Part shown: positions 48,731 to 52,346 of the stretch, in pieces | How the letters are laid out: each line of letters starts with the position of its first letter | Numbering within the stretch: the first letter of the stretch is position 1 | Origin: an uncultured Planctomycetia bacterium | GTDB lineage: Bacteria > Omnitrophota > Gorgyraeia > Tantalellales > Tantalellaceae | Reading direction: 5' to 3' | Assembly (NCBI GenBank): GCA_964572255.1 | Contig: CAZNEE010000001.1 | Coordinates: 267,587-331,586 of the forward strand | DNA: 64,000 bases | Position numbers and translations under genes: made by a program | Notes under the pieces: model-generated | The model's database searches: none | Seen by the model: the letters and a program-made list of their open reading frames with translations, nothing else | Told to the model about the DNA's origin: nothing

Positions 48731-49489
48731 ATGGCAAGATCACAAGTCACCAGATCCCTTAACATCAAACTCACCATTGCTTACGACGGCACTCACTTTA
48801 AAGGCTGGCAGAGACAGGCCAACGGTAAGACTATCCAGGGAGAGATCGAAAAAGCTATAGAAAAAGTCTTTGGCAAGCATCATGTTCTTTATGGCGCAAG
48901 CCGTACCGATTCCGGTGTCCATGCCAAAGCTCAAGCCGCGAATTTTAAAATAAATTCTTCCATCCCTACAAGTAAGATCCCTACAGCTTTAAATGCCTGT
49001 CTTTCCGAAGACATAGCCATAATAAAAGCGGAGGAAGCCGGGGCGGATTTTCATTCCCGTTTTGACGCTAAAATAAAACATTACAGGTACTTTATCTTGA
49101 ACAGTCGCAATAGAGACCCTTTTAATGAAAAATATTCATGGAGAGTTCCTTACAAGTTAAACGTGCCTCTTGTGCGAAAAGAAGCAAAAGTTTTGATAGG
49201 CAAGCACGATTTCAAGTCATTCCAGGCGACCGATAAGATAGAAAGGTCTTCGGTGAGAAAAATATCCCGCCTTAGCATAAAAAAAGAGAAGAACCAGTTA
49301 ATCGTTGATATTGAAGCTGACGGTTTTCTGTACAACATGGTAAGGAACATCGTCGGTACTCTTGTAGATATAGGAAGGGGATATCTTCCTGAAGGAAGCA
49401 TGAAAAAGATCTTAAAGGCAAAAGACCGCACAAAAGCCGGCCCCACAGCTCCCGCCAAGGGACTGTTTCTCGTAGAAGCGAAATATTAA
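48731..49489 (+). CDS. truA: tRNA pseudouridine(38-40) synthase
   Basis: IAYDGTHFKGWQ and the catalytic-Asp region GASRTDSGVHA. Confidence 0.9.
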   Translation: MARSQVTRSLNIKLTIAYDGTHFKGWQRQANGKTIQGEIEKAIEKVFGKHHVLYGASRTDSGVHAKAQAANFKINSSIPTSKIPTALNACLSEDIAIIKAEEAGADFHSRFDAKIKHYRYFILNSRNRDPFNEKYSWRVPYKLNVPLVRKEAKVLIGKHDFKSFQATDKIERSSVRKISRLSIKKEKNQLIVDIEADGFLYNMVRNIVGTLVDIGRGYLPEGSMKKILKAKDRTKAGPTAPAKGLFLVEAKY

Positions 49490-49537
49490 AAAGTTAACAA
49501 ATTCTGTCTTATAATTTTTCTAAAAAAATTTGATAAA

Positions 49538-49645
49538 AAATAGTAAACCATTCGGAAGGATGGGGCACAAAGCCAGAGGGGGCTAAAGAGGGGAAAGGCC
49601 CAGCCGGCTGCCGTTTGGAGCACTACCGTAAAAAGTGTGAAAAAA
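49538..49645 (+). promoter_or_regulatory. c-di-GMP-I (GEMM) riboswitch aptamer, copy 1
   Basis: GUAAACCAUUCGGAAGGAUGGGGCACAAAGCCAGAGGGG...CCAGCCGG matches the GEMM core: a P2 hairpin with a GNRA-type loop (CCAUUC-GGAA-GGAUGG), the conserved (A)CGCAAAGCC-like junction, and a P3 with GCC...GGC. Compared from memory with V. cholerae Vc2. Confidence 0.65.
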
Positions 49646-49660
49646 CAGGTTTATTGTGCA

Positions 49661-49692
49661 GACCCAACCTTTTCAATGGTTGGGTTTTTTGT
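49661..49692 (+). terminator. Intrinsic terminator (riboswitch expression platform): ACCCAACC-TTTTCAA-TGGTTGGGT followed by TTTTTTGT
   Basis: An 8-9 bp stem followed by a T-run, read directly. Lies 35 nt upstream of the RBS AAGTGAGGTG. Confidence 0.6.
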
Positions 49693-49726
49693 CCTGAAAA
49701 TCTAAAAAGAAAGTGAGGTGATTTAA

Positions 49727-50290
49727 ATGAAGAAATTATTAATTGTAGCTGGTATTTTGATAATGATATTTTTAGCAGCAGAATCTTCTAAAGCAGACGA
49801 ATGGGATTCTGTTTCGATAACAGGGATAGATGAAAGGTCTGCACAACTTGAGGTTGAAGGGTCTGACGCGTCCGGGAATTACGACCCAGAAAGTGTTACC
49901 AGATCATCGCCTGAAGGTTTCGTAATAGAATATGACGCTTTTTTTTCGTGGCCCGATGGTAACCCGCCCCCGACCACAGTAGGTGTTGTCAGAATGGCCA
50001 TGGTTGGTTATCCTGAAGTAGCCGAAGTTCCTATTGCTGGAGTTGTGTTCGTTGAAACACCCCCTGGCAGCGATATTTACAAAGGTACATATACCACCAC
50101 ACATTATGATGGGACGGGGACATGGATAGTAGAAATTGAATTTCAGATTAACGATCATACTTTTCCAGCTGATAATGAATATTATGCTACTGTAAAAGGA
50201 ACATTTATACCTGAACCAACAACAATCATATCGCTCCTATTAGGCGGATTAGGTTTGGCGGTAAGAAAAAGATTTAAGTTTTGGGGATAA
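49727..50290 (+). CDS. PEP-CTERM sorting-domain protein (secreted, acidic), predicted exosortase substrate
   Basis: Signal peptide. C-terminal IPEPTTIISLLLGGLGLAVRKRFKF is a PEP motif plus TM plus a basic tail. Confidence 0.7.
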   Translation: MKKLLIVAGILIMIFLAAESSKADEWDSVSITGIDERSAQLEVEGSDASGNYDPESVTRSSPEGFVIEYDAFFSWPDGNPPPTTVGVVRMAMVGYPEVAEVPIAGVVFVETPPGSDIYKGTYTTTHYDGTGTWIVEIEFQINDHTFPADNEYYATVKGTFIPEPTTIISLLLGGLGLAVRKRFKFWG

Positions 50291-50462
50291 GATAACATAA
50301 AAGGTCATTTTAGATGAAAAAGTTCATAAAAAAGAACTTAAAATTCTTTAATGGGTTTTTTGTCTAAGTCATTTCAAAAAAACCACATAGAACACTTCTA
50401 AGAAAACACATCGAATACTTCAAAACTTAACAAATTTTGTTAAGTTATTATTAATAGAAAAT

Positions 50463-50491
50463 TTGCGATTATTATAATTATATGGTATACT
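50463..50491 (+). promoter_or_regulatory. Candidate sigma70 promoter TTGCGA-17-TATACT driving riboswitch copy 2
   Basis: Read from sequence. The TSS would lie about 40 nt before the aptamer. Confidence 0.4.
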
Positions 50492-50537
50492 TTAAGTGAA
50501 AGTAAAGTGAGAAGTTTTTTGACAATCTATTTATTAA

Positions 50538-50645
50538 AATAGTAAACCATTCGAAAGGATGGGACACAAAGCCAGAGGGGCCGAAACAGTTTGAGTGGAG
50601 GCCAGCCGGTTATCGTTTAAAAGCACTATCGTAAAAGTGCGGAAG
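50538..50645 (+). promoter_or_regulatory. c-di-GMP-I (GEMM) riboswitch aptamer, copy 2
   Basis: AGUAAACCAUUCGAAAGGAUGGGACACAAAGCCAGAGGGGCC...GGCCAGCCGG. The P2 loop is GAAA (GGAA in copy 1). The 5' half is near-identical to copy 1. Confidence 0.65.
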
Positions 50646-50662
50646 AACTTAACCTCTGTTAG

Positions 50663-50697
50663 AGACCCGACCTTTCGATGGTCGGGTTTTTTGTTTT
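50663..50697 (+). terminator. Intrinsic terminator (riboswitch expression platform): GACCCGACC-TTTCGA-TGGTCGGGT followed by TTTTTTGTTTT
   Basis: Stem plus T-run read directly. Lies 5 nt before the RBS AAAGGAGGTG. The stem base pairs covary with the copy 1 terminator (A·T in copy 1, G·C here). Confidence 0.6.
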
Positions 50698-50712
50698 AAA
50701 AGGAGGTGTGTG

Positions 50713-51552
50713 ATGAGGAAGATTGCTATTATTTTTGTGTTATTTCTTATTTTTGGTTTTATGATTTCTTTATCTTCAGACGCCAGGATTATTTTGGATG
50801 CAAATTACCCAAAATACGGCGGCGCAAACTATTACCTGGAAGATGTGGATGCCCCGGTAACAGAAGAGGATGTGGACGATTGGTATACTTCTGGATTTAT
50901 TCCCGACGGCACTCCGCCGGTACCTGTATGGGTGGATGAGTATCAATATGTGATCACCGATGAACCGTACGAGTATGAACAGTATTTCAGCGGATGGATG
51001 TGGGCTTTTGATCAACATATGGATTATCCTCCTTGGGAAGAGTATGTAAATAATTATAATCACATGTATCCGGATTACACTCCGGATAATTCACTCTACA
51101 ACGGTGTTGATGGAGATCTGATCTTCGATTTCGTTGTATTCATGGATGATGGATATTACGGCGGATTACTTGAAGTCCAGCTGTGGGCTTATAATTTGAT
51201 GGAGCCCTGGACAGAGCCTGAGATGGTAGCGTTCGAATGGTTTGGGGCTATACCGGAAGAGCTTATGGGCGAACCATACGCCCATCATTATCCAATAGAA
51301 GCTGAGGGCGAATGGGTATGGTATTGGTATCAAGTGCATATGGATATACCATACAATCTGGCCGGATATGAGTGTTGGCTGCAGATAGCGCAGATAGGAG
51401 GAATAGGCGCACCTTATGGAGCTACGGTATACGGCGTATTCGGCGATGAACCTGCTTGGTTGAACGGAGGTGAACCGGTACCCGAACCGGCAACGATAAT
51501 TTCTCTGCTTTTTGCGGGTCTTGGGTTGGCAATAAAAAGGAAATGGTTTTAA
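50713..51552 (+). CDS. PEP-CTERM sorting-domain protein, extremely acidic and Trp/Tyr-rich
   Basis: Start taken as the ATG 5 nt after AGGAGGTG (the ORF-track GTG at 50710 is also possible). Signal peptide. C-terminal VPEPATIISLLFAGLGLAIKRKWF. No known domain. Confidence 0.7.
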   Translation: MRKIAIIFVLFLIFGFMISLSSDARIILDANYPKYGGANYYLEDVDAPVTEEDVDDWYTSGFIPDGTPPVPVWVDEYQYVITDEPYEYEQYFSGWMWAFDQHMDYPPWEEYVNNYNHMYPDYTPDNSLYNGVDGDLIFDFVVFMDDGYYGGLLEVQLWAYNLMEPWTEPEMVAFEWFGAIPEELMGEPYAHHYPIEAEGEWVWYWYQVHMDIPYNLAGYECWLQIAQIGGIGAPYGATVYGVFGDEPAWLNGGEPVPEPATIISLLFAGLGLAIKRKWF

Positions 51553-51586
51553 ATATATAGGAGGCGATTCGGGAAGGAGGTCCGGT

Positions 51587-52222
51587 ATGAAGAATTTAAT
51601 TTTGGGACTTATAGTTATTTTTATTTTAGCTGCAGTTTCCCATCTTTGCGCGGAAGCTGCTGTAGTAGGCATTGACGCTTTTAATGCCGGCGGAAACCTG
51701 TTTTTTGGAAATCTGACAGATCCTGAAGAAGGCTGGTATATTGAAACGGTAGGAGGTACTCCAGTCGCCGGTGTTGTTGATCTTGAAGGCATGCCTATAA
51801 TGAGATTTTACAACTCAGGCATAGTTGTTTATCACGATGGCGGAGGGTACCTGGGCCCAGGGGATGAAGTTCTGTTTAACGGGTATGTCAATAACGAGAA
51901 TGCAGGTCTGGCTTTTGCATTAGTTGAACCATACACTGGCGGAGTTGTCGCTACGTACCCGGCAGATTATAACTTTTTAGGGCCGGGTGAACATATCATT
52001 ACCGGACAAAAGATGCAAGTTCCGCTGGACTGGGTAGATCCATATGGGAGCCCTGAATCGTATTTCTACGTAGGTCTTTTAGGCGACGTCGGCACCTATG
52101 CGCAAGGTAGATATGGGTCTTTGGGAGGCGATGTAATCCCCGAACCGGCAGCGGTGCTTACCATGATATTTGTGGGATTTGGATTGTGCAAAAAGAAGCT
52201 CTTGAGCATATTGAACTTATAA
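51587..52222 (+). CDS. PEP-CTERM sorting-domain protein (Gly-rich)
   Basis: Signal peptide. C-terminal VIPEPAAVLTMIFVGFGLCKKKL. RBS GGGAAGGAGG. Only 34 nt after the previous gene, so probably co-transcribed. Confidence 0.7.
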   Translation: MKNLILGLIVIFILAAVSHLCAEAAVVGIDAFNAGGNLFFGNLTDPEEGWYIETVGGTPVAGVVDLEGMPIMRFYNSGIVVYHDGGGYLGPGDEVLFNGYVNNENAGLAFALVEPYTGGVVATYPADYNFLGPGEHIITGQKMQVPLDWVDPYGSPESYFYVGLLGDVGTYAQGRYGSLGGDVIPEPAAVLTMIFVGFGLCKKKLLSILNL

Positions 52223-52246: not shown

Positions 52247-52275
52247 TTGACAAACCCTGCCAAATGTGTTATTTT
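52247..52275 (+). promoter_or_regulatory. Candidate promoter TTGACA-17-TATTTT with an extended -10 TG, upstream of rplM
   Basis: Read from sequence. Confidence 0.35.
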
Positions 52276-52346
52276 CTACACTCTATGAATCACTCCAGAT
52301 CAGATGGTTTGGAGTGGTTTATTTTAGTCTATAGGAGTCAGATCTT

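Follow-up and report, generated by a model that had tools for sequence, protein, structure and literature searches.

We describe a small riboswitch-associated locus in a 64-kb stretch of DNA (the window, about 60 genes) from a Candidatus Omnitrophota bacterium. At its center lies gene B, an open reading frame (ORF) that runs on the plus strand from an ATG at 50713 to a stop codon at 51552 and encodes 279 amino acids. An earlier note on this DNA had described the product as a hyper-acidic, Trp/Tyr-rich orphan with a PEP-CTERM sorting signal, under cyclic di-GMP (c-di-GMP) control, and the ORF and all of the motifs quoted in that note are present in the translation. Gene B is preceded by a GEMM-I-class riboswitch and is flanked by gene A (49727–50290) and gene C (51587–52222); the three genes and the elements of their leaders all lie on the plus strand. 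The product of gene B is a PEP-CTERM protein specific to this lineage, an ordinary kind of protein and a compositionally odd member of a diverse class, and the riboswitch variant upstream of it is potentially interesting. More than the earlier note recognized, the locus is of interest for combining a modular, strain-variable cassette with a ligand pocket that contradicts the c-di-GMP label, chiefly in unit B.

Gene B and the PEP-CTERM class

A Shine-Dalgarno sequence, AGGAGG, precedes gene B at 50701–50706, and a GTG at 50710 offers a possible alternative start. Inspection of the translation places a Sec-type signal peptide at residues 1 to 24 (50713–50784), composed of MRK, a 17-residue hydrophobic core, and SSDA followed by the first mature residue, R. 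The acidic mature region that follows is without a hydrophobic stretch, so no internal transmembrane segment is present. By composition and AlphaFold2 (AF2) models, residues 25 to 133 (50785–51111) form an N-terminal half of mostly predicted coil with abundant Asp, Glu, Tyr, Pro, and Trp, and residues 134 to 245 (51112–51447) form a β-rich half with six long predicted strands. The PEP-CTERM sorting signal occupies residues 255 to 279 together with the stop codon (51475–51552) and is supported by NCBIfam model TIGR02595 and by similarity to the tails of the gene A and C products and of a further paralog, D, described below. Such signals consist of a Pro-Glu-Pro motif, a hydrophobic helix of about 14 residues, and a basic cluster at the extreme C-terminus (PMC1569441). 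The tail of B is laid out in this way, with VPEPAT, then IISLLFAGLGLAI, then KRKWF, and then the stop codon. It passes TIGR02595 with 21.5 bits against a cut-off of 16 (residues 256–277), which bears out the sorting signal claimed in the earlier note. The corresponding Pfam model, PF07589, scores 18.5 bits and narrowly misses its cut-off of 20.7.

Homology lacking outside the tail and a low number of basic residues are stated properties of the PEP-CTERM class (Haft 2006, PMC1569441). The tails are closer to each other within a species than between species, and the genes often form single-gene operons behind long intergenic regions (PMC1569441). In the cohort of Haft, basic residues were fewer, Cys was very low, and Ser, Thr, and Asn were enriched to about 23% (PMC1569441). 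Mature B matches that cohort in its basic residues (0.9%) and Cys (0.4%) but departs from it in Ser (1.3%), Thr (3.1%), and Asn (4.4%), which total 8.8%; the enrichment is a class tendency and not a criterion of membership. Because Ser, Thr, and Asn are depleted, heavy glycosylation of B is unlikely. The idea that this composition is unusual even among PEP-CTERM proteins therefore holds for the richness in Trp and Tyr (17.5% together) and the poverty in Ser, Thr, and Asn, but not for the orphan status or the few basic residues. The orphan status and acidity of B are expected for the class, and its aromatic richness is the unusual part.

In other respects, B resembles described substrates of the PEP-CTERM/exosortase (EpsH, Xrt) system, of which the flocculation protein PepA (NF033554) is a named NCBIfam example. 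It has a signal peptide and the C-terminal Pro-Glu-Pro, hydrophobic helix, and basic cluster. It also has several paralogs, with tails more alike than the remaining sequence and little homology elsewhere, and its short operon lies behind a long intergenic region. It differs in that B is riboswitch-regulated, whereas proteobacterial PEP-CTERM substrates belong to a sigma-54/PrsK-PrsR system, and in its host phylum, Omnitrophota, which is distinct from the described hosts. No exosortase gene was located in the window or in the 10 kb on either side of it. This absence and the narrow Pfam miss count against an exosortase substrate, although the former has little bearing on what the remaining genome may encode.

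The mature region of B proved to be an orphan without a recognizable domain, as the earlier note had proposed. A word-indexed search of 5.8 billion proteins matched B to itself alone, and an exhaustive phmmer search of 1.84 billion cluster representatives returned B itself and two spurious or tail-only matches. One of these, P0006, is a 75-residue fragment that matches the tail alone. The other, P0005, is a 901-residue Cys-rich repeat protein that shares with B just an 11-residue motif (YGVLGDCPAWL), repeated 11 times. P0005 is built of about 11 tandem repeats of about 55 residues, each with the motif PAYGVLGDCPAWL, which resembles residues 238–254 of B (YGVFGDEPAWL); we judged this likeness to be a short chance or convergent motif. 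A PDB sequence search at E ≤ 10 gave no match, a scan of GTDB species genomes with B peptides gave no relative, and Pfam and NCBIfam detected the tail alone, with no domain in the mature part. A BLASTP comparison of B with A, C, and D likewise showed no similarity outside the tail.

Structure prediction led to a similar result, and no confident match to a known family emerged. Two single-sequence AF2 runs, one full-length and one of the mature protein only, reached a predicted local distance difference test score (pLDDT) of 45.6 and 47.4, respectively. Both runs placed six long β-strands at residues ~134–245 and little structure at residues 25–133 (mostly pLDDT <50). As a point against it, the structural picture of B comes from two low-confidence models. 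A Foldseek search of the model against the PDB gave 0 matches at E ≤ 1e-3, with TM scores ≤0.26. The immunoglobulin, carbohydrate-binding module, and tumor necrosis factor–like β-sandwiches among its matches form an insignificant generic mix and were not counted as evidence. A motif of the form W-x-W-x-[FW]-x-Q-(x)-HMD-x-P occurs twice in B, at residues 95–106 and 201–213. An internal duplication was nevertheless rejected, as the half-versus-half alignment was not significant (z = 2.1, with 21 of 500 shuffles reaching as high a score).

The composition of B was computed over mature residues 25–253, which contain 42 Asp plus Glu (18.3%), 2 Lys plus Arg (0.9%), 13 Trp, and 27 Tyr, giving a net charge of about −40 at pH 7 and an isoelectric point (pI) of about 4.05. 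Across the remaining 56 genes of the window, the averages are a pI of 8.43 ± 1.55, 14.0 ± 3.0% Lys plus Arg, and 4.6 ± 1.7% Trp plus Tyr, which confirms B as an outlier by about 4 standard deviations for the basic and about 6 for the aromatic residues. The Asp plus Glu content of full-length B (16.1%) lies inside the range of the window (maximum 18.2%). The term hyper-acidic is thus apt for the net charge of B but not for its content of acidic residues, since the acidity stems from the near-absence of Lys and Arg more than from a surplus of Asp and Glu. On the whole, the window encodes markedly basic proteins (mean pI 8.4, with many above 9), and the four acidic PEP-CTERM proteins A to D stand out further against it.

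Shared leaders, shared tails, and strain variation

Genes A and B are each preceded by a leader of the same layout, in which a sigma-70-like promoter is followed by a GEMM-I aptamer and by an intrinsic terminator directly before the ribosome-binding site; unit D shares this layout. In unit A, a promoter-like site (TTAAAA-18-TATAAT, 49486–49515) ends 17 nt upstream of the aptamer (49532–49615), and a terminator scan placed a terminator with a 10-bp stem and U-tract at 49660–49695. In unit B, two promoter-like sites that are conserved with leader D (TTAATA-16-TATAAT and TTGCGA-17-TATACT with an extended TG) span 50451–50491. The aptamer that controls B and C (50531–50617) has the same sequence in five independent assemblies. 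Between it and the terminator lies a spacer hairpin (GCACU...AGUGC, 50623–50640) that is kept in leaders A and B and replaced by a different hairpin in D, and the terminator itself (50661–50697) has a 12-bp stem and U-tract in the same scan. Against an Rfam gathering score of 35 for RF01051, aptamers A, B, and D score 48.7, 57.5, and 51.7 bits, respectively. The P2 tetraloop stays GNRA across the three paralogs (GGAA, GAAA, and GUAA), and one P3 position is GC, CG, and UA in turn. Because the GNRA loop is kept and the P3 pairs are compensatory, all three aptamers appear to be under structural selection.

The genes behind these leaders encode dissimilar proteins. Gene A encodes a 187-residue acidic (pI 4.36) PEP-CTERM protein with 25.1 bits for TIGR02595. 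Gene C encodes a 211-residue Gly-rich acidic (pI 4.23) protein with a degenerate PEP-CTERM-like tail that the profile hidden Markov models missed but that is homologous to the B tail (E = 3e-6; 69% DNA identity over 75 nt). Both neighbors are without domains in Pfam and NCBIfam, as had been noted earlier, and are acidic as well; used as search bait, neither yielded homologs, and both are orphans. Gene C starts 34 nt past gene B with its own ribosome-binding site. Because of this spacing and the absence of a scan-detected terminator between the two genes, B and C are presumed to share one transcript.

To these, a metagenome scan with the core common to the two window aptamers as query added a single further locus, L021 (Ga0180437_10065373). 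Its source is JGI metagenome 3300017963, in which a contig of the B locus is found as well; it may nevertheless belong to another genome than B, a reservation for any comparison that includes it. Its unit D (L021:2489–3225) carries the same leader followed by an acidic PEP-CTERM orphan of 174–177 residues (TIGR02595 22.4 bits) and sits downstream of glycogen phosphorylase and a small membrane protein. Despite their unrelated sequences, the four PEP-CTERM proteins A to D fall within a pI range of 4.05–4.47. Pairwise BLASTN of the units found similarity in two places only, in the leader, covering promoter, aptamer, and terminator (69–79% over 100–266 nt), and in the sorting tail (65–69% over 75–92 nt). 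The mature regions of A, B, C, and D showed no similarity at the DNA or protein level by BLASTN and BLASTP.

Comparison with other assemblies adds variation between strains to this picture. In another sample (L004:1–120 versus window 50172–50293), slot A ends in an identical PEP-CTERM tail, LLLGGLGLAVRKRFKFWG, but the sequence before the tail reads VYFEMSSLSGYTV against NEYYATVKGTFI. Since an identical tail is preceded by different sequence, the mature region of slot A differs between strains. The same comparison shows 22 substitutions in the 120 nt of intergenic DNA (50299–50419) between gene A and promoter B, and downstream of this variable segment the promoter, aptamer, terminator, and gene B are identical. 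In a third sequence, L027 (corresponding to window 51531–51622), a tract of 11 differences starts inside the B tail (I274M, R276K) and continues through the B–C spacer into gene C, which suggests a recombination breakpoint within the B tail. The mature region and aptamer of B are invariant in five assemblies save for one synonymous change. The simplest reading of these sequence comparisons is that leader and tail are conserved modules, likely serving as recombination anchors, which flank fast-changing or swappable mature regions. The locus thereby provides a compact, testable example of surface-protein repertoire diversification with a fixed leader and tail around dissimilar mature regions.

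A close likeness is provided by Methylophaga nitratireducenticrescens GP59, in which clustered c-di-GMP-class riboswitches each precede a PEP-CTERM or VPLPA-CTERM gene (PMC12530212). Both organisms have tandem units of one GEMM-I riboswitch and one small PEP-CTERM gene, grouped closely in genomes where polysaccharide genes are also found. The present units differ in belonging to another phylum and in their modular build, a common leader and tail enclosing mature regions that are unrelated. Binding-site bases were read in the Omnitrophota aptamers, which carry A20, and in B also U92.

Switch polarity and the ligand pocket

To examine polarity, each leader was folded up to the terminator loop, before the 3′ arm of the terminator exists. 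In the lowest-energy truncated folds of all three leaders, the P2 tetraloop and the 3′ arm of the aptamer pair with the 5′ arm and loop of the terminator, and this antiterminator structure is 6–11 kcal/mol more stable than the aptamer-constrained fold. The putative antiterminator of leader B, a duplex of 8 + 4 bp at −17.8 kcal/mol, ranks among the best 0.1% of 25,590 background windows. In leader A, forcing the aptamer raises the probability of the terminator from 0.057 to 0.985. Because the antiterminator excludes the aptamer fold and forcing the aptamer restores the terminator, the arrangement corresponds to a classical OFF architecture, and ligand is predicted to turn the switch OFF. The folds also suggest that ligand-dependent docking of the GNRA loop would hide the toehold for strand invasion.

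Several points weigh against this prediction. The antiterminator complementarity of A and D is unremarkable (top 7–8% of background), and the full-length folds of B and D form the terminator with or without a forced aptamer (0.994–0.999); OFF polarity is a thermodynamic argument. The characterized Geobacter GEMM-Ib switches, moreover, are ON switches (PMC6456294), in which a ligand-stabilized antiterminator turns genes such as pgcA on, in contrast to the OFF behavior predicted for the Omnitrophota leaders. A closing P1 helix and an ON-type antiterminator were sought by eye in the leaders, and nothing convincing was seen. In leader B only, CCUCU (50654–50658), just before the terminator, can pair with the GGAGG of the Shine-Dalgarno sequence (50702–50706) in the minimum-energy fold; this pairing is not conserved in leader A and may be an extra translational layer.

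The ligand itself was considered by mapping the contact positions through cmscan alignment columns and published Vc2/Gs1761 numbering. In the c-di-GMP aptamer Vc2, G20 reads one guanine of the ligand (G-α) via its Hoogsteen edge, and C92 pairs in Watson-Crick fashion with the other (G-β) (PMC6140456, PMC5888326, PMC7288161). In GEMM-Ib aptamers that sense cyclic GMP-AMP (cGAMP), A replaces G20 (A14 of Gs1761), and G-β pairs with C75 in the triplet G74-C75-C76 (PMC6140456, PMC5888326, PMC7288161); an A20G change turns such an aptamer back to c-di-GMP selectivity (PMC6456294). For position 92, C92U alone cripples the c-di-GMP-dependent function of Vc2 (bioRxiv 10.1101/617340), and an engineered G20A/C92U double mutant of Vc2 (PDB 3MUV) binds cyclic di-AMP (c-di-AMP) (PMC7288161).

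The G20 column is A in three of three leaders, at 49542 (A), 50541 (B), and L021:2499 (D), and the surrounding AAUA matches A11-A12-U13-A14 of Gs1761. The C92 column is C within a GCC triplet in A (49611) and D (L021:2571) and U within an AUC triplet in B (50613); the A47 equivalent is also present, in aptamer B at 50568. The canonical c-di-GMP-I contacts G20 and C92 are therefore absent as a pair from all three aptamers. Leaders A and D carry the GEMM-Ib signature (A20 with C92/C75), resemble GEMM-Ib, and could be selective or bispecific, since the selectivity of natural A20 aptamers varies from about 1000-fold down to bispecific binding (PMC6140456, PMC6456294). With the Geobacter GEMM-Ib switches (Gs1761, Gm0970; Kellenberger 2015 and Nelson 2015, as cited in PMC6140456 and PMC6456294), the likeness comprises a GEMM-I fold with A20 in leaders A, B, and D, a C that pairs with G-β in A and D, terminator-based platforms, and control of extracellular or surface proteins. 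Leader B differs from these aptamers by having U in place of C75. By its bases, it matches instead the pocket of the c-di-AMP-binding mutant G20A/C92U, with the same two substitutions relative to canonical c-di-GMP-I aptamers, although it is a natural sequence in another scaffold than the engineered Vc2. The ligand of the B aptamer is, on these grounds, probably cGAMP or c-di-AMP rather than c-di-GMP, and may be 3′,3′-cGAMP, c-di-AMP, or a mixture. The proposal of c-di-GMP control made in the earlier note thus stands as far as a GEMM-I-class riboswitch lies upstream of gene B, but c-di-GMP is not a safe assignment of its ligand with A20 and U92 in the pocket.

One feature of the alignment speaks against reading U92 as a matter of ligand choice. 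U92 of B (50613) covaries with a G-to-A change at 50564 in the internal loop of P2, giving G...C in A and D and A...U in B, and RNAalifold pairs columns 34 and 83 of the three-aptamer alignment (GRCA with URYC). This covariation could have arisen by chance, or it could reflect a tertiary contact or a helix of the apo state, and U92 might accordingly serve an alternative helix.

The regulatory reading of the earlier note is possible, if rather doubtful: each of the three aptamers would be a functioning sensor of c-di-GMP, perhaps bispecific, with A20 and U92 as tolerated variation and high c-di-GMP in control of a set of matrix proteins. The best Rfam family is indeed c-di-GMP-I, A20 variants can bind c-di-GMP, as in Vc2 G20A with an affinity of 53 nM and the bispecific natural aptamer Cbe 1-2 (PMC6140456), and the Methylophaga clusters provide a precedent for c-di-GMP-class riboswitches before PEP-CTERM genes (PMC12530212). 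However, direct reading of the c-di-GMP guanines falls to two bases, G20 and C92, and both are changed in aptamer B. A20 defines the cGAMP-sensing GEMM-Ib group, with selectivity reverted by A20G (PMC6456294), and the strong weakening of c-di-GMP-dependent Vc2 function by C92U (bioRxiv 10.1101/617340) points in the same direction.

That aptamer B is instead a decaying, non-binding copy, disabled by U92, with its leader a constitutive attenuator or otherwise regulated, appears unlikely. U92 does depart from a near-invariant ligand contact, and the B terminator forms in thermodynamic folds whatever the state of the aptamer. On the other hand, aptamer B scores highest of the three against the covariance model, retains all its helices, with a compensatory P3 pair, as well as A47 and the GNRA loop, and has the strongest antiterminator complementarity. 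It is also invariant in five assemblies, against 22 differences 120–240 nt upstream.

Returning to cGAMP or c-di-AMP as the more probable ligand of B, a more specific scenario can be drawn, which we put forward as a speculation that is more likely wrong than right. The B aptamer (A20/A47/U92) would be a natural GEMM-I variant of undescribed specificity, for c-di-AMP or for cGAMP in a new register, while A and D (A20/A47/C92) would sense cGAMP, so that one Omnitrophota cell would employ two specificities of one fold to control separate members of a hypervariable, recombining family of PEP-CTERM surface-protein cassettes. If the B aptamer does bind c-di-AMP or read cGAMP differently, it would represent a new natural specificity in the GEMM-I fold and a first hint of which cyclic dinucleotides uncultured Omnitrophota use on their cell surface. 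If the two specificities are real, the surface repertoire of the cell would be addressed by second messengers, in a phylum whose members are thought to live attached to other cells. In any case, automatic c-di-GMP-I annotations need to be read at the level of the binding site before a c-di-GMP regulon is inferred from them.

Possible function and genomic context

We consider it likely that gene B encodes a Sec-exported, exosortase-sorted surface or matrix protein that is made together with C under a cyclic-dinucleotide riboswitch, which is OFF with ligand and whose ligand is more likely cGAMP or c-di-AMP. Under the family model of Haft (2006), Sec would export B via its N-terminal signal peptide, the C-terminal helix would briefly hold it in the inner membrane with the PEP motif on the periplasmic side, and an exosortase would cleave or transfer it, so that B would end in a cell-surface glycan or matrix layer. 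The mature protein would comprise a segment of about 110 residues rich in Asp, Glu, Tyr, Pro, and Trp, probably extended, and a β-rich C-terminal half of about 110 residues. Expression of B and C would be gated by transcription attenuation through the promoter, the GEMM-I-fold aptamer, and the intrinsic terminator. When ligand is absent, the newly made 5′ arm and loop of the terminator would pair with the P2 GNRA loop and the 3′ arm of the aptamer, forming an antiterminator and allowing read-through; with ligand, the aptamer would be locked, the terminator would form, and transcription would stop.

For the role of the exported protein, our suggestion is a tentative one, which we hold with considerable doubt: B may act in surface coating or adhesion through aromatic–glycan stacking and carboxylate–cation bridging. 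Its exposed aromatic side chains would bind glycans, and divalent cations would be carried or bridged by its roughly 40 excess carboxylates. One candidate for the glycan is a polysaccharide of the cell itself, encoded by the gene cluster in the first 30 kb of the window and perhaps sulfated or containing nonulosonic acid; another is a glycan of a partner cell. It should be said against this suggestion that glycan or cation binding is a guess from composition.

The composition would also fit a metal- or mineral-binding protein of the biomineralization type, in which the carboxylate excess nucleates or coats a mineral phase. We regard this as very unlikely. A carbohydrate-, metal-, or mineral-binding role, as put forward in the earlier note, is speculation, and none of the present observations points to mineral binding in particular. 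A net charge of about −40, the near-absence of basic residues, and the existence of magnetotactic Omnitrophota (PMC7449369) are in its favor. However, neither the window nor its flanks contain magnetosome or other mineralization genes, and the Asp and Glu residues of B are scattered among aromatic residues and form no poly-acidic runs. All four unrelated PEP-CTERM paralogs, moreover, are acidic, and low basic content is general to the class (PMC1569441). The shared acidity of these exported proteins (pI 4.05–4.47) could alternatively be a habitat adaptation, such as an effect of high salt on everything outside the cell, that would be uninformative on function, and this too is highly improbable. 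A family-5 solute-binding protein encoded in the same window is also exported and has a pI of 8.69, against a proteome that is basic overall (mean pI 8.43). On the basis of this protein, the acidity of B is not general to the exported proteins of this organism, and salt adaptation was rejected; salt would also not account for 17.5% Trp plus Tyr. Finally, the notion that the ORF is not a real gene hardly merits consideration despite the lack of a homolog of B anywhere searched, as gene B, an 840-nt ORF in a genome of 42% GC, has a consensus ribosome-binding site, a signal peptide, a sorting tail, and a riboswitch and terminator immediately upstream, and is identical in five assemblies, where the sole change in the mature region is synonymous; it is a real gene.

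The cassette (49490–52222) lies between truA and rplM. The flanking TruA shares at most 72% identity with proteins of Candidatus Omnitrophota metagenome-assembled genomes, some of which are labeled Planctomycetia. The order leuB-asd-truA-[gap]-rplM-rpsI-argC-argJ is kept in relatives among these genomes, where the gap is taken up by an SNF-type transporter gene, an ankyrin or multihaem protein gene, or others, and no riboswitch was found at the syntenic truA–rplM site in these relatives. Because the gap varies and is without a riboswitch in relatives, the cassette is lineage-specific. A foreign origin was rejected on base composition, as the GC content of the cassette (0.41–0.45) equals that of the genome (0.42).

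A surface-glycan cluster of about 40 kb, carried on one strand, covers window positions 1–30000 and the 10 kb upstream of the window (L024:1–10000). It encodes three sulfotransferases, the nonulosonic-acid synthase NeuB, PIG-L, WbqC, a CDP-alcohol phosphatidyltransferase, and many GT1, GT2, GT4, and GT9 enzymes, together with the initiating sugar transferase Bac_transf, Wzy_C, and a Polysacc_synt_3 flippase. Its product is possibly a sulfated, sialic-like polysaccharide.

Two minor observations concern the DNA downstream of the cassette. In the region 52247–52346, a 17-bp hairpin followed by Us (52285–52322) lies between a promoter-like site (TTGACA-17-TATTTT) and the start of rplM and may be an rplM-rpsI leader or attenuator, although Rfam gave no family match for this region. 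About 6 kb past the end of the window (L022:16801–17391), an IS200/IS605-type Y1 transposase (PF01797) is the sole minus-strand gene in a plus-strand biosynthetic run.

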